A stretch of DNA of 63,789 nt, counting the filler, from Nitrospinota bacterium (lineage in GTDB: Bacteria; JAUXIQ01): assembly GCA_030620925.1 (NCBI GenBank). It is 11 parts of 11 records of this genome, joined end to end, with 100 filler letters (N's around TTAATTAATTAA, not from the genome) between each part and the next. Parts side by side here need not be neighbours in the genome. Positions count along the whole stretch, not along the records: positions 50,803 to 60,418 come from JAUXIQ010000047.1; 10 more parts are not named here. The stretch is one strand, 5' to 3'. Position numbers and translations under genes: made by a program. The notes under the pieces are model-generated. The model saw only the letters and a program-made list of their open reading frames with translations. It had not been told where the DNA came from and ran no database searches. This document shows positions 26,180 to 60,518 of the stretch, piece by piece. Each line of letters begins with the position of its first letter. The stretch's first letter is position 1.

Positions 26180-26596
26180 ATGAATTTACAGAGGGCCGAA
26201 TTAGAACGTACGGAAGAGATGTTGCGTGAAGAAAAAGAACTGCTCGATACTACTTTATACAGTATCGGCGACGGTGGAATCAGTACGGATTTATCGGGCA
26301 GGGTTATTATGATAAATCACGTTGCAGAAACACTGACCGGATGAACTCAAGGGGAGGCGGAGGGCAGACCTCTCGAAGAAGTCTTTCATATAGTAAATGC
26401 AAAGACGCGTGAGCCTTGTAATAATCCTGCAATGAAGGCCATGGAAACGGGGGCAGTCGTCGAGCTTGCTAATGATACGGTGCTTATTGCCAAAGACTGC
26501 ATTGAGCGCTTTGTAGCCGACAGCGGCGCTGCTATCTGTAATAGCGAGGGCGAAATCTACGGTACGATTCTCGTGTTTCGTGATATCACTGAATGA
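26180..26596 (+). pseudogene. PAS-domain sensor fragment with an internal stop
   Basis: TTLYSIGDG...[23 protein letters not shown]...LVFRDITE*; TGA at 26342-44 where Trp (LTGW) is expected. Confidence 0.8.
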
Positions 26597-26925
26597 TATT
26601 TTATTACCCGAATTTCATCTCACAGGTTTTCCCTGGTTATCCATGAAGTTGAGATATTGTCCTAATATCTTGACTTTTAGCCTGTCCCCTCTGACCACTA
26701 TTATGTTGTGTCTTCCCTATTCCGCCAGGAAAAGAAGACCTCCCTTTATCCTTACCATAGACCTCGAAAAAGTAAGGTTGAGCCTCTTTGAGGTTTAAGT
26801 GTAAAGAGTGCCCCAGGGATTATTTTGTTAACATAATAACAGGATTTTGCTAAGGTATTGAACTGCTAGAAAGGTGACTCGATAAAATAGAGAGTATCTA
26901 CACCAGTTCTGGAGGGCAATCATAG

Positions 26926-37717: not shown

Positions 37718-38045
37718 TAGCGGATATTTAAGCCCGATCAGGCAAGACTTAACAACCCTCCACGAGAAAGTTTCCGAAAGTAGCTTATCTCAGCAATGAC
37801 TGAAAAGCGCCTGCCATAGGTTTATTCCAATACTTCAATCCTGCCCTCCCCACTATTCTATCAGCTCAGTACCGACCCCGTGCTCACGAGTTCATTGAGA
37901 ATACGGCACTGCGGCGCTGACATTCCTGTGTTCCCCTTTATCCGGTTATGATATCTTCTATTTCAGAGAAGATTACCGTGTCCGCTTATACGCAGGTAGA
38001 ATGCCGCTCATTGTCAAAAACCGATCGGGAGATGTGGTCATGCAT

Positions 38046-38662
38046 ATGGAAGAGACAAAGGGGAGAAGCCGCTACGGGTTGGAGAACCACGGCCTCGATA
38101 ACCTGGGCAACGTCCACTGGAACTTGTCCACCGCAGCTCTCTGCGAGGAAGCGGTGCGACGACGGGAAGGTATGATGGCCCATCTGGGGCCTCTGGTGGT
38201 GAGGACCGGCCACCATACGGGGCGCTCACCTGAAGACAGGTTCATCGTCCGCGAGCCGTCCAGCCAGGATAAGGTCTGGTGGGGTGAAATGAACCATCCT
38301 TTCCCCCCGGAAAAGTTTGAGGCTCTTCAGAACCGCCTCCTCGCATATCTTCAGGGGAAGGACGTTTTCGTGCAGGACTGCTATGCCGGAAACGACCCCC
38401 GGTATCGTGTTCCCATCCGCATCATCACCGAGGACGCCTGGCATAACTTTTTCGCCCGCAACATGTTCGTGCGGATACACGACAGGAAGGAGCTTGCGGA
38501 GCACGTCCCATCCTTCACTGTCATCAATACACCCCGTTTTAACGCTTTCCCCGAAGTGGACGGCACCAATTCGGAGGCTTTTGTGATCATCAACTTCGGC
38601 GCAAAGCTCATCCTCATAGGGGGCACGAGCTATGCGGGTGAAATCAAGAAGTCGATTTTCAC
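38046..38662 (+). CDS. pckA: Phosphoenolpyruvate carboxykinase (ATP), truncated by the gap
   Basis: TGRSPEDRFIV, AWHNFFARNMF, GTSYAGEIKKSIF. Confidence 0.95.
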
Positions 38663-38762
38663 NNNNNNNNNNNNNNNNNNNNNNNNNNNNNNNNNNNNNN
38701 NNNNNNTTAATTAATTAANNNNNNNNNNNNNNNNNNNNNNNNNNNNNNNNNNNNNNNNNNNN

Positions 38763-50702: not shown

Positions 50703-50802
50703 NNNNNNNNNNNNNNNNNNNNNNNNNNNNNNNNNNNNNNNNNNNNTTAATTAATTAANNNNNNNNNNNNNNNNNNNNNNNNNNNNNNNNNNNNNNNNNN
50801 NN

Positions 50803-51031
50803 CGAAGGAGCCGCTGGCGATAGGTGCGTTCATATCCTCCACGTGGTGATAGCTGCCGGCCAGCCGCTGCAGCTCCTCCAGTTTTCGCCCCGTTTCCTGC
50901 TCGATGATACCCACTGCGTTACCGGTCACCGTGAGGTGCGTCTCCACAGACGTATTGGATGCCAGCACCTCCAGCAGACGGACGCCGTAAACGGCCCCAC
51001 TGGCTCCTGAAATTCCTATTACTAATCTCAT
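50803..51031 (-). CDS. ubiX: Flavin prenyltransferase, truncated
   Basis: VIGISGASGAVYG...APIASGSF. Confidence 0.93.
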
Positions 51032-51066
51032 GCTCCGCCTTTACAATAACAAAAATCATGCGCCGT

Positions 51067-52428
51067 TCACGCCGAGCCTGTCAACTCTGAGAGGTCCACT
51101 TTTTCCAGGCCCACCGTCCGGCGGCGGGCGAACTTCTCCTGCATCAAGGGGTCGATAGTGGCGTCGAAGCCGATCTTGGTAAGCGTATCGCCCGGCTGTT
51201 CGATAAACGGGTCCAAGTTCAGGGCCGCAGCCCCTTTTACCAGCAATATGTCATTATCGTAATCGACGCGGGTGGTTATGGCCCATAGTATATCGTTGGG
51301 GTCGTCTATATCCACATCGTCGTTGATGATCACAGCCATCTTGGTCCAGGGATGGGAGAGGGCCGTGGTGAGCACGTTCTTGGTTATCCCCCGCATGCTC
51401 AGGGGCACGTCGGCAATCTGCACCACGCATCTGAATATGAAGGGGAGCATGCGAACGTTTTTCACCAGGGGACAGACCCGTTTCAGCCTTTTCATAAGGT
51501 CTGCTTCCGTGGGTACTCCCAGAAGCGCATGCTCTTCGATGGTTCCTCCCAGGATGGTCTGAAAAATGGGGTTTTCCCTATGATAGAGGGCCTTAACCTC
51601 GATAACCTGTTTGGGCGATTCCCCCCCGTAATATTCCAGCACTTCGGCCATGGGGCCCTCCGGCTCACGCACCCCCGGCGGTATGACCCCCTCCATAACT
51701 ATCTCTGTGTTGGCCGGAACTTCCAGGTCCACGGTCAGGCACTTGACCAGCTCCAACGGCTTCCCTTTGAGCGTCCCCGCATATTCGTATTCATCAACGT
51801 CCATGGGGACTTTTGAGGTGGAGGCCATGAACAGGTAGGGGTCCGTACCGTCCAGTATGGCCACTTCCAGGGGCATCCCCCGCTGCTCACATTTTTCCTG
51901 GATAAGCGTAAGATGCTGATTGGAGACAAGCTGTATACCCAGCCTGTTACCCTCTTTCAACTGAATGCGGTGTATGCTGGTATTATATAATCCCGTGTCG
52001 GGGTCCTTGGCCACCACCACTGGGGAGGTGAAAAATGGCGCCGCGTCCTTCTCATAGCTAAAGGGTACCGGTAACAGCTCGCCTATGTTCGGCTTTTCCC
52101 GGTAGACCTTAAACGGCTCCACCCTCTCGCTGGAGACTACCGGTTTGACAGGCGCTCCCGCCCCTCGATCGCCCAGGGTGAAGGCTACCTCTTCAGGGGA
52201 AACACCGAACAGGTTGGCTAACTTGTCCCGACCGCCGTAGAGGTTCGCCACCGCGCCCATCTTCCCGTCCACGTCCTCGAAAAGGACGGCCTGGCCCGTT
52301 GTATCCTGGACCTTCTTGATAATGGCTGCCAGCTCGAATTTTGCGCTGACCCGCTTCTTTATCCGCACCAGATCGCCACGGTCTTCGAGCAGCTCTATGA
52401 GTCCCCTCATATCCGAAAGGGCTTCCAC
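51067..52428 (-). CDS. UbiD-family prFMN-dependent (de)carboxylase
   Basis: NTSIHR, VPANTEIVMEG, EGPMAE, DDVDIDDP...WAITTR, KIGFDAT. Confidence 0.93.
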   Translation of the reverse strand: MEALSDMRGLIELLEDRGDLVRIKKRVSAKFELAAIIKKVQDTTGQAVLFEDVDGKMGAVANLYGGRDKLANLFGVSPEEVAFTLGDRGAGAPVKPVVSSERVEPFKVYREKPNIGELLPVPFSYEKDAAPFFTSPVVVAKDPDTGLYNTSIHRIQLKEGNRLGIQLVSNQHLTLIQEKCEQRGMPLEVAILDGTDPYLFMASTSKVPMDVDEYEYAGTLKGKPLELVKCLTVDLEVPANTEIVMEGVIPPGVREPEGPMAEVLEYYGGESPKQVIEVKALYHRENPIFQTILGGTIEEHALLGVPTEADLMKRLKRVCPLVKNVRMLPFIFRCVVQIADVPLSMRGITKNVLTTALSHPWTKMAVIINDDVDIDDPNDILWAITTRVDYDNDILLVKGAAALNLDPFIEQPGDTLTKIGFDATIDPLMQEKFARRRTVGLEKVDLSELTGSA

Positions 52429-52616
52429 AGGTCATCCCCCCTGCTAATTATCGGCAGCCGGGCTGCAGGCAACGAAAATACCCGTCGTCAATAAAAGAGC
52501 CCGCTACCTCAATAACGGGATTTTTCGTTTAAGTAAAGGTATTCTTATTAGATTAAGCTACGAGATGTCAACAGGATTTTGAGCTTGAGGATATCTTATA
52601 AGGGAATGGGCACCGA

Positions 52617-52943
52617 TTATTTGCCTTCCAGCGGGTATTCCGCCTCCGCCCAGGCGTTGAATCCGCCCTTCAGGGCACAAACATTCCGGAAACCCAGCGT
52701 CCGCATCTCCGCCGCCGCACCGACGGCCGAGCCCTCGCTCGGTCACGTTCAGTAAAAAACGAGCTTCCCTTCGGCCGACAGCTCATTGTGGGCGGCCGCT
52801 ATCGTGTCTTTGGTTATGTTTATAGCTCCCGATATGTGCGCCGAATCGTAGGCCTCGCTGGACCTCACGTCTATTACCGTAACATTTTCACCATCGTCCA
52901 GCATGGTTTTGAGCTCATGGGGGGTTATGCGTTCTATATCCAT
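52617..52943 (-). CDS. Rhodanese-domain selenoprotein candidate with two in-frame UGA codons (UxU)
   Basis: IDVRS...HISGAINI...LVFY-TGA-ACG-TGA-PSEGSAVGAAAEMRTLGFRNVCALKGGFNAWAEAEYPLEGK-TAA; GGAGGTG RBS. Confidence 0.85.
52711..52742 (-). promoter_or_regulatory. SECIS-like hairpins
   Basis: CCGAGC-GAGG-GCTCGG right after the second UGA, then GCCGTCG-GTG-CGGCGGC. Confidence 0.6.
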
Positions 52944-53005
52944 GAAAAACACCTCCTGATCCAATTATTAATATAAATATATACCGCCAGGAGGCCCGGA
53001 ACGCT

Positions 53006-53725
53006 CTATCTGATCAGCAAAATCGACCCCAGGGCAAGCAAACCTATATAAATGCACTTCCGGTACATCGCGGTGTCCATTCTTTCATAGGCCCGAAGGC
53101 CCAGGAAGTAGCCCAGTGCTACAGAAGGTATAAAATAGATACAGTAGAGCAGCACGCCCTTGGTGACCATGTGCGAGGCGGCATAGAGGGACAGCCGGGT
53201 GCTGCAACTGATGATGAAAAAAAACTGCAGCGAACCCTTCAACTCGTCCTTTTCCCAGTTCTTCAACGTTACGAAAACGATGGCCGGCGGTCCCCCGATG
53301 TTGAAAGCGCCTCCCAGGTTGCCGCTGACGAATCCCAGCAGGTAACCCCAGCCCCCGCGTATCGCCTGCTTCACCCGGGTAACTCCCAGCAGGGACCACC
53401 CTCCGTACAGGATGAGCATCACACCCAGACCCGTGATTATGTTCTCCTCCGGCACATACTTCAGTATCAGCACGCCGACCGGCGTTCCGGCTACGGCTCC
53501 CACGATAAGAGGCAACATCTGCCGCCCTTGAACCTTCCCCCTGTGCCGGAGGAAAAGAATAACTGTCAGAGACAGGGCGTAAATGGCTACAAAGGGTATC
53601 GAAAACTTAACCCCCAGCACCAGAGGAAGGACGCCCATAGAGACCAGCCCGAAACCAAACCCCGTTACGCTCTGAGTAAACGCCGCCGCAACGAGAATAG
53701 CGGCTATTCCTGCAATTTGGCCCAT
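53006..53725 (-). CDS. TauE/SafE (TSUP) family sulfur-compound transporter
   Basis: QSVTGFGFGLV, GTPVG, GGAFNIGGPP; about 8 TM helices. Confidence 0.9.
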   Translation of the reverse strand: MGQIAGIAAILVAAAFTQSVTGFGFGLVSMGVLPLVLGVKFSIPFVAIYALSLTVILFLRHRGKVQGRQMLPLIVGAVAGTPVGVLILKYVPEENIITGLGVMLILYGGWSLLGVTRVKQAIRGGWGYLLGFVSGNLGGAFNIGGPPAIVFVTLKNWEKDELKGSLQFFFIISCSTRLSLYAASHMVTKGVLLYCIYFIPSVALGYFLGLRAYERMDTAMYRKCIYIGLLALGSILLIR

Positions 53726-53896
53726 GGCGTTACCTTTTTATGAGTAGGAGAATCCTTCATCCGATTATGCCTGAGTATTTGTTCACAATTTCCGGCAAAT
53801 CCCGCGCCGCCGTCCATTATAAAAAATTCTCATGGTGAAAGTCCATCTTATGGTAGTATTATCTGCAAATCCAATCGACCGGAAGGAGGGGTATTG

Positions 53897-54853
53897 ATGT
53901 TTCGCACCGTCGTATGCGACATGCTGGGGATAGAATATCCGATCATCCAGGGGGGCATGGCCTGGGCTTCGGATCACAGGTTGACAGCGGCTGTCTCCAA
54001 TGCCGGAGGGTTGGGCCTCATCGCCGCAGGCAACATTCCCGACGAAGACCTTATTCACGAGATACGAGAAACGCGCAAACTCACCGATAAACCCTTCGGC
54101 GTAAATATCGTGCCCATCGCCGGAGTGCAACTGATGGACCGCATAAAGGTCCTGGTCGACGAAGGTATCAACATCGCCGCCACCGCTTTCTCCGACCCCA
54201 CGATGCCCGTCATCTCCGAGCTGCACAAGCACCCAATGAAGGTCCTCTGCGTGGTCCCTTCAGTGCGCCTGGCCAAAAGGGTGGAAGCTGAAGGGGCGGA
54301 TCTAATCGTCGCCTCGGGCACCGAGGCCGGCGGGCACGTTGGCAGGATAGCCACCCTTCCCCTGGTGCCTCAGGTGGTCGACGCGGTGAACGCGCCCGTG
54401 CTGGCCGCAGGCGGTATAGGCGACGGGCGGGGATTGCTGGCCGCCCTCTCCCTGGGGGCAAGCGGGGTACAGATGGGCACCCGCTTCCTGGCCACCAAAG
54501 AGTGCATAATACATCAGAGCTTGAAAGCCCTCCTGGTGGAGGCCACCGAGGAGGATACGGTAGTCACCGGAAGCGTAACCGGCTCTCCCGCCCGCTGTTT
54601 GAGAAACGAGTTCACCGATTACTGGCTTACCAAAGAAAAAGAGAAAGGCCACATGGCCAAGGATGAGCTTCAGCGAGAAGGGCTGGGAAGACTATATAAG
54701 GGGATGATCGAAGGAGACATGGAAAACGGGACGCTCCCCGGAGGACAGGTCTGCGGCCTCATCCGGGAGATAAAGAGCGTTAAGGAAATAATCGAGGGTA
54801 TCATGGCGGAAGCAGAGGCCATCTATAAGAGTATGGGCAAAGCGCAGGCATGA
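53897..54853 (+). CDS. Nitronate monooxygenase / FabK-like flavoenzyme
   Basis: PIIQGGMAW, AVSNAGGLG, EAGGH, AAGGIGDGRG, QMGTRF. Confidence 0.92.
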   Translation: MFRTVVCDMLGIEYPIIQGGMAWASDHRLTAAVSNAGGLGLIAAGNIPDEDLIHEIRETRKLTDKPFGVNIVPIAGVQLMDRIKVLVDEGINIAATAFSDPTMPVISELHKHPMKVLCVVPSVRLAKRVEAEGADLIVASGTEAGGHVGRIATLPLVPQVVDAVNAPVLAAGGIGDGRGLLAALSLGASGVQMGTRFLATKECIIHQSLKALLVEATEEDTVVTGSVTGSPARCLRNEFTDYWLTKEKEKGHMAKDELQREGLGRLYKGMIEGDMENGTLPGGQVCGLIREIKSVKEIIEGIMAEAEAIYKSMGKAQA

Positions 54854-54952
54854 GGTTTACGCGGCCTCTAATGACCATCATTTTTTATTGAATCCGACTG
54901 AAAGCAGGATACACCAGACACCTTAACGCAGACGCAGGGAAAGGAAACCGAA

Positions 54953-55525
54953 ATGGCCAGGAAATCGCTCAAACCCGACACCATGCTTGCCCCCACACCA
55001 GTGGTAATGGTGAGCTGCCAGAGGGAAGGGGAAAAACCGAACATAATAACCATAGCCTGGATAGGCGTGGTCTGCTCGGACCCCCCCATGGTCAGTATCA
55101 GCATCCGCCCCAGCAGGTATTCATACGAGATGATCAAGGAAGCGGGGGAGTTCGTGGTTAACATTCCCACCCGTGAATTGTGCCAGGTTACCGACTACTG
55201 CGGCATCGTCTCCGGGAGGGATGTGGATAAATTCAAGGAGACCGGCCTCTCCCCGGAACCCTCTACCGTAATCAAAACACCCTCCATCAGCGAATGCCCC
55301 TTGAGCCTGGAATGCCGGCTAAAAGAAGTGATACACCTGGGCGCTCACGATCTGTTCCTGGGGGAGGTGGTGGCAGTTACGGCCGATGAGTCCGTCTTGA
55401 ACGGGGATCGGATTCAGGTCTCAAACCTGAACGCCATTTCCTATATGCCTCCCACGAGCGAATATTGGTCGCTTAACGAAACCATGGGCCGCTTCGGCTA
55501 CTCCAAAAAGAAGATGGCCAAATAA
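54953..55525 (+). CDS. Flavin reductase-like FMN-binding protein
   Basis: PVVMVSC, NIITIAW, SGRDVDKF, ECPLSLEC, HDLFLGEV. Confidence 0.92.
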   Translation: MARKSLKPDTMLAPTPVVMVSCQREGEKPNIITIAWIGVVCSDPPMVSISIRPSRYSYEMIKEAGEFVVNIPTRELCQVTDYCGIVSGRDVDKFKETGLSPEPSTVIKTPSISECPLSLECRLKEVIHLGAHDLFLGEVVAVTADESVLNGDRIQVSNLNAISYMPPTSEYWSLNETMGRFGYSKKKMAK

Positions 55526-55539
55526 CAAAAGCAGGGCAG

Positions 55540-55605
55540 CCCCGCGTACGGCGGGATTATCCCCGCCCTGTGGAGTCAGGGCGAAATCCATCCCGTGGGG
55601 CAACA
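55540..55605. repeat. Short GC palindromes of the CCCGC...GCGGG family
   Basis: CCCGCGTACGGCGGGA; CGCCCTG...CAGGGCG. Confidence 0.45.
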
Positions 55606-55812
55606 AGATAACAGTGGAAAAACCGACTCATTAGTTTTATAATACCCATTTGATTGAAGCTCCACAAAGATCGGTATTAAGTAATCCGCCGACCTCTAGC
55701 CATCAACCCCTTCCGACAATATGGATGCAATATCGACATTGGACTCTGGTGGCCCGGGACGAAAATAGTCAAATCTGCTTTTCGCCGACGGCAAATTTAT
55801 TGAGGTAGCATC

Positions 55813-56769
55813 TTGGAAAAATGTTTAATCACAGGCATCACGGGATTTGCCGGAAGCCACCTGACCGATTACCTCCTCACCTTGTCCGACGTGGAGGTTC
55901 ACGGCGTCCTCAGGTGGCGCAGCCGCACCGAACATATCAGCCATTTCGCGGGCAACGTCGTTATGCACGAGTGTGATGTCAGGGACCTCTCTTCGGTCAT
56001 CAGGGTGCTAAAGACAGTAAAACCGGATAAAATCTTTCATCTTGCGGCACAGAGCTACGTTCCCACATCATGGTCAGCGCCCTCGGAATCCATCACCACT
56101 AACGTAATCGGAACCCTCAACATATTTGAGGCCTCACGCCACCTGGACCTGAACCCCCGAATACAACTGGCCTGTTCCAGCGAAGAATACGGCATGGTCT
56201 ACGAGGATGAGGTACCCGTTAAAGAAACCAACCTCCTGCGGCCGCTGAGCCCATACGCAGTCAGCAAAGTGGGTGAAGACCTTCTGGGCTACCAGTATTT
56301 CCATAGTTACGGCCTGCATATCATCAGGACGCGCGCCTTCAATCACACCGGTCCCAGGAGGGGCGACGTCTTCGTCTGTTCGAATTTCGCCAAACAGATA
56401 GCCCTCATGGAAAAAGGGGCCGTCGAGCCGGTGCTGCACGTGGGAAATTTAGAGGCCAAAAGGGACTTCACAGACGTCAGGGACATCGTAAGGGGATACT
56501 ACCTGGCCCTTGAAAAAGGAGAACCCGGGGAGGCTTACAACATCTGTACGGGGGAAGCATACTCCATCAAAGATATAATCGATATGCTGCTGGAGATGAC
56601 CTCAATCAAGGTGGAATTCAAAGTCGACCAGGAGAGGATCAGACCCTCGGACGTCCCCCTGCTCATTGGTGACAATACGAAGTTCAAAAAAGCCACAGGA
56701 TGGTCCCCCTCTATCTCTTTCAGCAAAACCCTGAAAGACGTCCTGACTTACTGGAGGGAGACAGTCTGA
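55813..56769 (+). CDS. GDP-mannose 4,6-dehydratase / Rmd-like NDP-sugar SDR
   Basis: GITGFAG, HLAAQS, SSEEYG, YAVSK, FNHTGPRR, GNLEAKRDF. Confidence 0.9.
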   Translation: MEKCLITGITGFAGSHLTDYLLTLSDVEVHGVLRWRSRTEHISHFAGNVVMHECDVRDLSSVIRVLKTVKPDKIFHLAAQSYVPTSWSAPSESITTNVIGTLNIFEASRHLDLNPRIQLACSSEEYGMVYEDEVPVKETNLLRPLSPYAVSKVGEDLLGYQYFHSYGLHIIRTRAFNHTGPRRGDVFVCSNFAKQIALMEKGAVEPVLHVGNLEAKRDFTDVRDIVRGYYLALEKGEPGEAYNICTGEAYSIKDIIDMLLEMTSIKVEFKVDQERIRPSDVPLLIGDNTKFKKATGWSPSISFSKTLKDVLTYWRETV

Positions 56770-56831
56770 TCAGCGCTGCCCCCTTTTAGAATCGCCATCC
56801 CTTGCTTTCTTGTTGTCCTCTGAAGGAAGGG

Positions 56832-57050
56832 TCATTTACCGGTGAGGTCTTTCAGCTCTCTTTTTGCTCCCTCTATCTCCTTTTCAAGCTCTTTTATATA
56901 TCCCTCCAACTCCTCAGCATCTTCCTCAACCGTACTGAATTGCCTCTGGAATCCGGACCCGCAGGAGCACGGGCTGCAACCACAAGAACAGCACGCCCCC
57001 CTTTGGGAACCCCTACCACAACCGCACCTATCAAAAGACTGTCTGCACAT
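56832..57050 (-). CDS. Small Cys-rich protein with a C-terminal coiled coil (DUF5320-like)
   Basis: CGC...CCSCGCSPCSCG...RQFST...LEGYIKELEKEIEG; AAAGGAGG RBS. Confidence 0.8.
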   Translation of the reverse strand: MCRQSFDRCGCGRGSQRGACCSCGCSPCSCGSGFQRQFSTVEEDAEELEGYIKELEKEIEGAKRELKDLTGK

Positions 57051-57074
57051 GTTCGCCTCCTTTCAGGTATAAGG

Positions 57075-57239
57075 TTAGGTTATACCTATGATCATTTTTC
57101 CGAGGGCATCTTTTAGAACTTCGGTAGTGTTTACATGAAGGGTGATGCCCCGTGCGTCCCTGAAATGTTTTTCAAGGGAAAATTCCTCCGTATAACCATG
57201 ACCACCGTGTATCTGCAGGAACTTCGCATTGCCTGAGTA
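57075..57239 (-). pseudogene. Acyl-CoA dehydrogenase C-terminal remnant
   Basis: LQIHGGHGYTEEFSLEKHFRDARGITLHVNTTEVLKDALGKMIIGIT*; no start, in-frame stop upstream. Confidence 0.8.
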
Positions 57240-57371
57240 TTAACTCACCTTCGTATGAACCTCTAAGGCCGAGCATTTCATTTTTTCTTCCTATTGTAAG
57301 CCCCGCTCCTTAGTTCAATAATTTCTTTAGTGTTGATTAAGCAAGAGGTCCGCCCGGTGCGGGTGATCAGA

Positions 57372-57437
57372 CTACTTAGTGCCTAAACAACCGCAGTCAC
57401 AGGATTTTTTCTTAGCTTTCTTCTTCTTTTCAGCCAT
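57372..57437 (-). CDS. 21-aa Lys/Cys-rich small peptide
   Basis: MAEKKKKAKKKSCDCGCLGTK* with AAAGGGGGTGA RBS 6 nt upstream. Confidence 0.6.
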   Translation of the reverse strand: MAEKKKKAKKKSCDCGCLGTK

Positions 57438-57509
57438 ACTCGATCACCCCCTTTCCTGGGTTGATGGTTTTTGCTACCGTCATGCCGGGCGGACCAATCG
57501 CCAGAACAT

Positions 57510-57540
57510 TTAAGTATATTAGTAAGTCCTTATATATACG
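57510..57540. promoter_or_regulatory. Second ArsR-type operator copy
   Basis: TTAAGTATATTAGT is identical to the half-site at 57923. Confidence 0.65.
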
Positions 57541-57551
57541 GGCAAAAAAAA

Positions 57552-57911
57552 CTACTCCGCTTCGGCTATTTTCTTTTCCACCTCTTCGAGCTCTCTTTTA
57601 AGCGCTTCACGATACCTCTGCAGCGAAGGCAGGCTGCCTTCACAACCACAGGTGCAGATCTGTTCCATTTTGTCCCGGCATTTAACGAGCGCCTCTTCGT
57701 TGATACTGTAGTGAACCCAGTAGCCATCCCTCTTATTCCTCACTATGTCCGCGCTCTTTAATATCCTCAACTGCTGAGACACGGCGGACTGGCTGACGCC
57801 AAGCTCTTCGGCCAGGGCGTTTACAGTCATGGGGCCCTTCTTCAGCAGCTCAACAATGTTAATCCTGGTGTCCACTGAGAGCACTTTGAATAGTTCAGCA
57901 ATTTCGTTCAT
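57552..57911 (-). CDS. ArsR/SmtB-family repressor with C-terminal CxCGC and coiled coil
   Basis: FKVLSVDTRINI, SQSAVSQQLRILK, RDGYWVHYSIN, CTCGC. Confidence 0.92.
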   Translation of the reverse strand: MNEIAELFKVLSVDTRINIVELLKKGPMTVNALAEELGVSQSAVSQQLRILKSADIVRNKRDGYWVHYSINEEALVKCRDKMEQICTCGCEGSLPSLQRYREALKRELEEVEKKIAEAE

Positions 57912-57922
57912 CTATTGTCTCC

Positions 57923-57954
57923 TTAAGTATATTAGTTATTACTAATATGCTTAA
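57923..57954. promoter_or_regulatory. ArsR operator inverted repeat
   Basis: TTAAGTATATTAGT-TATT-ACTAATATGCTTAA (14-4-14, one mismatch), overlapping a minus-strand promoter (TTGACT at 57966-71). Confidence 0.8.
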
Positions 57955-58074
57955 TCGTATCTAAAAGTCAAGTGCTTTTTTAAGATCAAGGGAAAATAAT
58001 TGGTAATAACTAATGCTTTGGTACTGTTTTGACTGATAATTTAGCTATTTAGATGAGCAAACACAAAAATTTAG

Positions 58075-58365
58075 GGGGAGCGCTCCCCGCGGAAGACGGG
58101 GTCAAAGGTGAGGGGAAATTTGTTGCTGGCAGAATCGCGGCAAGATGCCGCTCTTACGATGGTGGGTAGTCCCGCTTGCCGCGGGCCCTTCGCTCCGCTC
58201 GAGGGCAAGACTCAGAATGACACGATGCGGAGTGGCAGGTTCACGGCACGCCGTGCTCGAGTTCCTCTCCCTTGACGGGAAGGGATTGGGGAGGGTGATA
58301 CTATTAAATTCACCCCCACCCTATCCCTCCCCTGGTCCCGCTAACCGCGGGACTCAGAATGACAG
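58075..58365. repeat. REP-like palindrome mosaic
   Basis: CCCCGCGGAAGACGGGGTCAA; GTCCCGC...GCGGG twice; CTCAGAATGACA twice; TCACCCCCACCCTATCCCTCC. Confidence 0.8.
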
Positions 58366-58559
58366 AGAGAGCGCTTTTGCCATAGCCAAAAACAGAAAGA
58401 GAATATCCTGCACATACTCCACGCAAATGACAAGTCATGTCGCAAACATTAAAAAAAATGACTGAGTATCTGAAACACGTTTCCAAAGAGAGTAAACTTC
58501 GCCCCGTCAAACAGCCCGCGCGGTATGGAGCACCTTCCGGGCGCGACTAGATGTTGTAG

Positions 58560-58860
58560 CAGAGGCATTAGTCCCCTATAAATCTGGTGGAAATTCCGGG
58601 TTATCCACGATTTGAAAATATAAAATGCAATTATTCAGATTAAAATAGTCGTAACCTGTGGAAAATAATTAAACCAACTTAAATATTTATCGCATCTACC
58701 CACGCAAGGGGACTAAAAAGGGATAAACTATTGATAATATGGATATTTAATGGTTGCCTAATTTTTGTGCAATCCGTTACAAATCCTTTTATTTTTGCCA
58801 TAAATAGGGGTTTCCCCCAGCGTTTTCCACAACTTTTCCACCATTTTTGTTAATAAAGTA
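58560..58860. promoter_or_regulatory. AT-rich DnaA-box cluster with IHF site (oriC/datA/DARS-like)
   Basis: TTATCCACG 58601, TGTGGAAAA 58657, TTTTCCACA 58823, TTTTCCACC 58834, TGTTAATAA 58848; IHF consensus match 58724-36. Confidence 0.5.
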
Positions 58861-58926
58861 TTACAACTTTAGCAAGGCTCAATAAATTTAGGGTGTTACG
58901 GCAATTTTACTATTGACAGTTCGACC

Positions 58927-58956
58927 ATTGTATGCAATATTAGTTGTATAATACAA
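58927..58956. promoter_or_regulatory. MarR-type operator palindromes
   Basis: ATTGTATGCAAT and TTGTATAATACAA just upstream of the MarR gene, after TTGACA. Confidence 0.6.
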
Positions 58957-58977
58957 TATTAATGGAGGCAATCACAC

Positions 58978-59490
58978 ATGCAAGAGAAAAACGAAGGACA
59001 ATTCATCAGTGACCTTCAGGAGCTTACCGACGATGTCATCCGGGTTTTCCAACTCATGGATCGGGAGGAAAAGAGCCGTTTCGGCGTCACAATGACCCAG
59101 AGCTACGCCCTGCAGAGCATCTACTGCTGCGAAAAGCTTACCATGAATCAGCTCAGCGAGCGGATGGGTCTGGCCACAAGCACCATGACCCGCATAGTGG
59201 ACAACCTAGTTCGCGACGGCTACATCGGAAGGATCAGAGACGATACGGACAGGCGGCTGGTATATGTAACGCTTACCGAAGATGGGCTCAAGCTTGCCGA
59301 ACAGTTGCGTGCCTGCACCACGGAATGTTTTAATAACATTGCGAAAAATATTCCCTCGGGAAACAGGACGACCGTGGTAAACGGCATCAGGGCTTTCCTG
59401 GAGGCCCTGAAATGCGCCTATGCCGAATCATGTGAAGATGTATCCACCGACAAGAAAGTTGAGGAGAAGGTCGGCCAGTCTTCATCCTAG
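58978..59490 (+). CDS. MarR-family regulator, Cys-rich
   Basis: LTMNQLSERMGLATSTMTRIVDNLV, DRRLVYVTLT. Confidence 0.92.
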   Translation: MQEKNEGQFISDLQELTDDVIRVFQLMDREEKSRFGVTMTQSYALQSIYCCEKLTMNQLSERMGLATSTMTRIVDNLVRDGYIGRIRDDTDRRLVYVTLTEDGLKLAEQLRACTTECFNNIAKNIPSGNRTTVVNGIRAFLEALKCAYAESCEDVSTDKKVEEKVGQSSS

Positions 59491-59931
59491 AAGGCGCTTG
59501 ACCGTCTCGTTGACCATCTTGCCGTCAGCCTTACCTTTAACCTCTGCCATAACCGTTCTCATGACATCGCCGAATTTCGGCTCCGCGCCCCCTTCAGACA
59601 GTTCTTCCATTTTCTTCTTGACCAGTTCCTCAACTTCCTCCCCGGATAGCTGTTTGGGCAGGAACTTCTGCACCACTTCTATCTCTTCAAGCAATGATGA
59701 TGTATCACGCCCGGCGGATTCCATCCCTTCCAGGGCTTCATGAAGCCGCTTGCGGTAGGATGCAATGATGGGGACAACCTCGTCTTCCTCCAGCTCGCCC
59801 TCGCGGTGCTTTTCCTTTTCCTTCATCTGGATGGCGCTGAGCATCATGCGCACCGCGTTCAGCCCCACCTGATTCTTCTCCTTCATATAGGTTTTCATGG
59901 CCTCCCTCAGCCGCTCTTTGGTCTCGCTCAA
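59482..59931 (-). CDS. GatB/YqeY domain protein
   Basis: MKTYMKEKN, KFLPKQLS, VKGKADGKMVN. Confidence 0.9.
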   Translation of the reverse strand: MSETKERLREAMKTYMKEKNQVGLNAVRMMLSAIQMKEKEKHREGELEEDEVVPIIASYRKRLHEALEGMESAGRDTSSLLEEIEVVQKFLPKQLSGEEVEELVKKKMEELSEGGAEPKFGDVMRTVMAEVKGKADGKMVNETVKRLLG

Positions 59932-60177
59932 CTCTTCACACTCCTTTCTTATGCAAAATACCTGCAGAGCCCGGTTAGCCCGGGTTATGAAAACAGGGGC
60001 CGAACCGTCATACCCTCCCCCGCATAACCCTCAACCTTATAATATTAACACCTGCAACTCCGCCTCCGCAAGGCAGCAGGGGCCTAATCCTTGACTAATG
60101 TCGCCGGCGCGGATACAATCTGTCAAAATGCGAAGTCCGGTTAAATCATATACCAACTTTGAATCAGGGAGGACGAA

Positions 60178-60396
60178 ATGTCACCTGCCCAAGGCCCCGC
60201 CGACGAATGCCCGAGACTCGAAGAGAATCTCAGCTCATGCAGCTGCACGTATACCTCCTGCCCCAGGAGGGGGCAATGCTGCCTGTGTGTGGTCCATCAC
60301 CGGGAGCAGAACCAGTTGCCCGGCTGTTTCTTCCCGCCGGAAATTGAAAAAACCTACGACCGCTCCTACGAGCGGTTCGCTCAACTATACAGCTAA
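60178..60396 (+). CDS. Small Cys-rich protein (DUF6485-like)
   Basis: CSCTYTSCPRRGQCCLCVVHH...LPGCFFP...TYDRS; GGGAGG RBS. Confidence 0.75.
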   Translation: MSPAQGPADECPRLEENLSSCSCTYTSCPRRGQCCLCVVHHREQNQLPGCFFPPEIEKTYDRSYERFAQLYS

Positions 60397-60518
60397 AAAG
60401 AACGGAGAAACCAGTGAGNNNNNNNNNNNNNNNNNNNNNNNNNNNNNNNNNNNNNNNNNNNNTTAATTAATTAANNNNNNNNNNNNNNNNNNNNNNNNNN
60501 NNNNNNNNNNNNNNNNNN

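Follow-up and report, generated by a model that had tools for sequence, protein, structure and literature searches.

Two in-frame UGA codons upstream of one conserved SECIS hairpin in a rhodanese gene of a Nitrospinota bacterium: a probable UxU selenoprotein

The DNA analysed here (the window) is a stretch of 63,789 nucleotides, filler included, from the Nitrospinota bacterium assembly GCA_030620925.1. Its parts are joined by 44 N's, 12 bases and a further 44 N's, with 20 N-runs of 44 in all (e.g. 50703-50746/50759-50802 and 60419-60462/60475-60518), and some genes are cut at these joints (UbiX, 50747-51031; a PEPCK fragment, 38001-38714). The rhodanese gene described below lies on the 9616-base piece 50803-60418.

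The gene occupies 52617-52943 on the minus strand and consists of 108 codons and TAA; codons 65 and 67 are in-frame TGAs (Sec65 and Sec67 if read as selenocysteine). An AGGAGG resembling a Shine-Dalgarno sequence was read from the sequence at 52952-52957 (minus strand), 8 nt upstream of the ATG at 52943. From this ATG the standard ORF runs to ...GKLVFY and is followed in frame by TGA (52751-52749), ACG and TGA (52745-52743), then by 41 sense codons (PSEGSAVGAAAEMRTLGFRNVCALKGGFNAWAEAEYPLEGK) and TAA (52619-52617), giving a total of 108 aa. With read-through, the stretch across both sites is LVFY-U-T-U-PSEGSAVGAAAEMR and the active-site loop is FY-U-T-U-PSEGSA; without read-through, the product consists of the first 64 residues only. 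When both TGAs were read through, the Pfam model PF00581 (Rhodanese) matched residues 7-100 over profile positions 1-101 of 102 (E 1.7e-19; 70.6 bits, gathering cut-off 22.2), so that the rhodanese domain is complete only with read-through. An earlier examination of the DNA, referred to below as the sequence-only reading, had claimed that the frame stopping at LVFY continues through TGA-ACG-TGA and that the 41 downstream codons complete a rhodanese fold of 108 aa. Translation confirmed the layout, and the near full-length PF00581 match bore out the fold. Neither a signal peptide nor a membrane anchor is present. As judged from sequence, the gene is most likely intact and codes for a selenoprotein, a single-domain rhodanese of the cytoplasm.

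A TauE/SafE-family (TSUP) permease gene (53006-53725, minus strand; PF01925, E 4.8e-27) was identified as an ORF 62 nt upstream of the rhodanese start. By consensus match only, a promoter-like site was located before the permease gene (53845-53816, minus strand), and behind the rhodanese gene a consensus scan alone gave a stem-loop and T-run like those of a terminator (52500-52519, minus strand). The common orientation of the two genes, with the promoter-like site before and the terminator-like hairpin after them, suggests a two-gene unit. Permease and rhodanese are probably in one transcription unit, from which the downstream UbiD and UbiX genes are probably separate. For UbiD, identity to the nearest named homologues is only 47-48%. 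In close relatives, TauE and rhodanese genes were found on the same short contigs.

The read-through protein matched 16 NCBIfam models, of which NF041203 ("rhodanese_LYCAU, rhodanese-related (seleno)protein") scored best (91.7 bits, below the 115-bit cut-off). For codon-level comparison a gap-free alignment, A3, was built from the window and 29 metagenomic loci (28 with the CxU motif, and one further locus, L023), comprising 30 sequences, 28 of them distinct. The second UGA (52743-52745, minus strand) aligned with the TGA that all 29 loci have at the Sec position of NF041203 (the second of C-x-U), and this site is TGA in 30/30 sequences of A3. The first UGA (52749-52751, minus strand) aligned both with the catalytic Cys of solved rhodaneses and with TGC or TGT in the 28 CxU loci. 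The first-position Cys of NF041203 is thus absent in the window, where TGA replaces TGC/TGT; of the other 29 aligned sequences only L023 has this replacement too. With the canonical catalytic Cys aligned at the first TGA, this codon stands in place of that residue, and the second TGA marks the site where Sec is known in the family.

Homologues were collected by profile search and sorted by script on the active-site motif. Cys at both sites (Y/F-C-x-C) was found in 39 of the 120 homologues listed (e.g. FYCDCINE in P0132), which agrees with the earlier claim that both UGAs fall on the Cys sites of a YCxCPxE loop. Another 45 of the 120 listed are truncated just before the second site (...YCx), and 24 are truncated just before the first (...FY or ...LY), the latter corresponding to 24 of the 69 truncated clusters listed. 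The remaining sequences are four with C-x-W at the sites and eight other rhodaneses, again among the 120 listed. The four C-x-W sequences, "full-length" relatives with Y-C-[TA]-W-P (P0127, P0153, P0154 and P0155), lie on short contigs of 764-1177 nt. Their W is probably a TGA rendered as Trp by a gene caller, which would make them selenoproteins translated wrongly. The cluster at 90% to which the window belongs contains six distinct 64-aa sequences, each ending in LVFY; the 64-aa database relatives begin with MDIERI, as does the window rhodanese. Other search modes gave less: a word-based homologue search returned 2 proteins only, an exhaustive HMMER search was dominated by multi-domain rhodaneses, and a genome-contig scan with a single protein as query found distant loci only (26-37% identical).

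A metagenome scan yielded 471 confirmed loci, and the best 80 were considered. Among these 80, 28 carry Y-C-x-TGA, and L023 carries LY-TGA-ACT-TGA followed by an open, family-like frame (...GGFAAWETAGLPVEG). Beyond the window and its strain variants, L023 is the only occurrence of UxU at the DNA level in the best 80 of the 471 loci. Its protein shares only 37% identity with that of the window and carries a membrane anchor at the N-terminus, so that L023 provides an independent example of UxU. Many NF041203-type relatives are likewise lipoproteins or membrane-anchored. The family was also searched for in a sample of 401 Acidobacteriota genomes, which includes two unpublished genomes. Matches to NF041203 at E <= 1e-12 were obtained in 174 genomes, and most of the 150 matches listed, out of 274, have one in-frame TGA. 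None of these 150 has two, from which the UxU form appears to be rare in Acidobacteriota.

Two further observations were made on individual loci. On a single 1716-base contig, L049 (Ga0070670_100204541) has two rows with the CxU motif, each with its own SECIS-like hairpin, which suggests two tandem CxU rhodanese genes. L070:3001-3294 belongs to another Sec-rhodanese form, with the TGA at the canonical catalytic position (...PIVTI-U-RTEKRSS...), and is not a member of the CxU family.

In the flanks of 33 Sec-form loci (51 of 90 flanking ORFs scanned with Pfam) no TauE neighbour was found, so the pairing with TauE seems lineage-specific. Metal-related genes often flank CxU loci. These include P-type ATPases (L012, L017, L044), PCu(A)C (L012), a CDF transporter (L013), an ABC-3 transporter (L014) and MerR regulators (L095, L096), and there are hints here of a possible metal or metalloid role for the CxU rhodanese family. 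At three loci (L102-L104) the match coincides with an ORF of the Na+/H+-exchanger family, with open frames of 567-574 aa, suggesting a putative rhodanese-exchanger fusion.

Two hairpins fold downstream of the UGAs on the minus strand. The first, CCGAGC-GAGG-GCUCGG (52727-52742), directly follows the second UGA and is specific to the window. The second, GCCGUCG-GUG-CGGCGGC (52711-52727), was identified as the SECIS by folding and covariation; it has a 7-bp stem, a GUG apical loop at 52720-52718 and a free energy of -10.1 kcal/mol. Its loop begins 22 nt past the second UGA and 28 nt past the first, and counting on the sequence confirmed the distances of about 22 and 28 nt given in the sequence-only reading. 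Bacterial SECIS limits are given in the Fig. 2 legend of a 2026 review of the prokaryotic selenoproteome (PMC13188914) as an apical loop of 3-9 nt, an upper stem of 4-16 bp, a loop starting with GG or GU, a spacing of 16-37 nt and a minimum free energy of <= -7.5 kcal/mol. By that legend, the 52727-52711 hairpin lies within 4/4 of the published constraints for both UGAs. The first hairpin (52742-52727) stands 6 and 12 nt from the second and first UGA, outside the SECIS spacing range. Neither L023 nor any of the 28 CxU loci has it, and it is probably an incidental fold or an extension of the lower stem. Of the two downstream GC hairpins that had been proposed, both are therefore present as folds, but only the second is a conserved SECIS, the first being unconserved and too close.

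All Sec-form loci were folded after the second TGA and share a common hairpin, typically with a GCGCC/GGCGC stem and a (C)GUG(C) loop, the loop G-U being at nucleotides +23 and +24 after the second UGA in every sequence. This family feature, a (C)GUG(C) loop at 22 nt from the Sec codon, comes from the present analysis and not from published criteria. In the 28 distinct sequences of A3 the five core pairs always hold, and changes on both sides occur in 5 of the 7 pairs. In 500 shuffles the observed pairing and covariation were never reached. When the 3' arm was displaced by 1-3 columns, 34-57% of cells were paired versus 82% observed, and RNAalifold run on A3 independently gave the same five core pairs. 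In the window all 7 pairs form, and at two of them both partners differ from those of the family (A-U to G-C and G-C to C-G). The hairpin was found at this register in 36 of 36 Sec-form rows scanned (-6.2 to -11.8 kcal/mol) and was absent in 5 of 5 CxC homologues (0 to -4.0 kcal/mol at the register); being present in all Sec-form and absent in all CxC sequences, it tracks the TGA and not merely the fold. It sits in a conserved S-A-R/V/G-A-A coding stretch, so that part of the conservation could be at the protein level, although Cys-form homologues are without both the peptide and the hairpin. The recurrence of the codon positions and of the hairpin register in 29 independent metagenomic loci is not due to chance.

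Metagenome runs of 11 studies, marine and sediment, contain near-identical sequence. Contigs of four runs were aligned to 52550-53010; only those of X1 and X6 bridge the UGA site, and X2 and X3 cover the stretch in part. The support for variants given here comes from low-depth assembled contigs (depths 3.65-15) and not from raw reads. The X1 contig spans 52550-52850 with 10 differences and the X6 contig 52674-52863 with 8 differences; in both, which are from two studies, the two TGAs are kept and there is no indel. Support for the TGAs in sequencing data, on which the sequence-only reading had made its case depend, was accordingly found in these strain contigs. Variants upstream of the TGAs are H36 synonymous, I43 synonymous, I48V, H52R and V62 synonymous; those downstream are V74A, E79 synonymous, R81 synonymous, R81Q, T82K, L91 synonymous and L105M. 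The V74A change is U-to-C at 52723, by which a U.G pair of the SECIS stem becomes C-G and the stem is strengthened. No decay past the TGAs was seen in the strain contigs, with neither frameshift nor further stop. As strain diversity is small, the downstream pattern (3 synonymous, 4 non-synonymous) is weak evidence for selection. A piece of 52 nt (52711-52762), made up of just the UxU codons and the SECIS, recurs at an identity of at least 85% in X3 and X6 contigs whose flanks do not resemble the window, with no change listed at the TGAs. Across organisms no part of the gene is better conserved, as would be expected where constraints on protein and RNA coincide.

TGA ends 20 of the 45 Pfam-supported ORFs in the window and is the commonest normal stop there, hence it is not reassigned and the standard code applies. 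Other TGA-interrupted genes were looked for in the window and none was convincing. A PAS-like ORF at 26180-26665 (plus strand) has in-frame TGAs, one of them in ...AETLTG-TGA-TQGEAEG..., and may be a pseudogene. PAS domains usually have an aromatic residue at the site of that TGA.

The 63.8-kb window contains no detectable tRNA genes, and a search of the whole window against Rfam at gathering score gave no match; a permissive Rfam scan of 52400-53100 gave two chance-level matches only. SelA, SelB and SelD domains were not found among the 51 window ORFs scanned. Given the conserved SECIS and TGAs, selA, selB, selC and selD are presumed to be encoded by this organism. An AIRS-domain neighbour in L104, suspected to be SelD, was rejected because it proved to be ThiL.

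We estimate a probability of about 0.8 that both UGAs encode Sec. The proposal of a two-Sec transferase loop made by two recoding events, with which the locus had originally been put forward, is supported by the match to the CxU family, the covarying SECIS, the existence of L023 and the persistence of the TGAs in divergent strains. An alternative is that the first UGA mostly terminates translation, the gene being a CxU gene with a recent nonsense mutation at the catalytic Cys, or one attenuated by selenium, that makes mainly the 64-aa fragment and the full-length protein seldom if at all. In favour of termination, the gap of 28 nt from the first UGA to the loop exceeds by 6 nt the spacing found in all 28 CxU loci, and the first UGA is followed by A, whereas C follows the second UGA in most family members. 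However, 28 nt is within the 16-37 nt range in the legend of PMC13188914, and the same stop is present in six close relatives, in strain contigs of two studies and in the 37%-identical L023. A stop at the first site also recurs in 24 of the 69 truncated homologue clusters listed, and downstream of it there are no indels or decay. We consider predominant termination at the first UGA unlikely.

A decaying pseudogene, in which both TGAs are inactivating and the downstream frame is a relic, would agree with the truncated annotated product and with an NF041203 score under the cut-off. Against decay, the two stops coincide with the family's two Cys/Sec positions and the SECIS is intact with compensatory changes. 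The 41 downstream codons, moreover, are open and keep the family consensus GGFxAWxxAxYP, and the strain variants introduce no frameshift or extra stop; an inactivated gene is thus a very improbable explanation. An assembly or sequencing error, or a code in which TGA means Trp or Gly organism-wide, was rated as the least probable of all, with hardly any weight. The window is stitched from about 11 contigs and W stands at the second site in P0127 and P0153-P0155, as an artefact or another code might lead one to expect. Both TGAs are nevertheless kept in independent contigs from other studies, TGA closes 20 of the 45 Pfam-supported ORFs, and homologues without TGA align Cys there, not Trp or Gly. 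The W forms themselves, from contigs of 764-1177 nt, probably reflect TGA translated as Trp.

A UxU form of a "rhodanese-related sulfurtransferase" was predicted in deltaproteobacterial symbionts of Olavius algarvensis by Zhang and Gladyshev in 2007 (PMC1976440). As far as the text description in that paper goes, the UxU form had already been predicted and the window gene is a further example, not a new kind. Both are members of the rhodanese family with a second Sec giving UxU, both are associated with marine sediment and both are computational predictions, as described there. The two may correspond in subfamily, residue positions and SECIS; a shared SECIS and a TauE neighbour, features of the window gene, are not described in that text for the 2007 form. 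New here are the shared, covarying SECIS with two spacings, the control provided by the Cys form, the persistence of the TGAs at strain level and the frequency of first-site stops. Within the passages available from the literature searched, no experimental test of a UxU motif was found.

In Table 1 of the 2026 review (PMC13188914), NF041203 corresponds to "rhodanese-like form 3", with CxU and one Sec; the catalogue given there has five rhodanese selenoprotein forms, none of them UxU. A 2022 review (PMC9312934) lists "COG0607 form 2 (CxU)". The NF041203 CxU family resembles the window gene in its second-site Sec, the P-x-E...S-A loop context, the hairpin register and the GUG loop. It differs in that the Cys of CxU is also TGA in the window gene, which scores 91.7 bits against a cut-off of 115 and is unanchored. 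According to the catalogue entries of PMC13188914, rhodanese forms 1, 2 and 4 have UxxS or UxxG motifs and resemble the window gene in having Sec at the canonical catalytic position, but motif and architecture differ. The same applies to TsoB, a rhodanese/DsbD fusion with UxxxxU and 2 Sec, which by its entry there shares with the window gene two Sec a few positions apart and differs in motif and architecture; its model gave 26.8 bits with the window protein (cut-off 805). Compared with the bacterial SECIS model in the legend of PMC13188914, the 7-bp stem, the 3-nt loop led by G-U, the distances of 22 and 28 nt and the energy of -10.1 kcal/mol are all within limits. The difference is that one hairpin stands behind two UGAs 6 nt apart, a case that the account of the model there does not discuss.

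In the mechanism proposed, the loop would be Sec65-Thr-Sec67, where Sec65 would replace the catalytic Cys and Sec67 would be the Sec of the CxU (NF041203) family. Both UGAs would be recoded co-translationally by SelB with Sec-tRNA(Sec), and the one in-frame SECIS (52727-52711) would direct both events, at a distance of 28 nt and then of 22 nt. A single hairpin serving both UGAs would have to act twice in the course of two elongation steps. The pair of selenols, at residues 65 and 67, might act as a persulfide or perselenide carrier or undergo intraloop diselenide cycling. From our reading of the alignments, the C/U-x-U-P-x-E loop is without the basic residues of thiosulfate-type rhodaneses, by which a redox or chalcogen-carrier role would be favoured. 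The protein may also act on a sulfur or selenium oxyanion in partnership with the TauE/TSUP permease of the probable two-gene unit. A broader and more tentative reading, to which we give somewhat less than even odds, is that UxU forms a branch of the CxU family that is widespread and for the most part unannotated. One SECIS would there be used twice, and the two selenols would form an intraloop diselenide with a very low-potential redox or selenium-carrier site, which in this organism would work with the co-transcribed TauE/TSUP permease.

Public databases list the window gene and its relatives as fragments of 64 aa, and the curated model is named for CxU only. As first-site stops are common (24 of the 69 truncated clusters listed), a two-Sec subfamily has probably been missed systematically. 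Two UGAs 6 nt apart with one SECIS constitute a natural test of the spacing tolerance between SelB and SECIS, and the same arrangement would test how fast a second SelB complex reloads. If the reading is true, a rhodanese with a Sec-x-Sec catalytic loop would offer a diselenide-capable site of a kind seldom found in nature.
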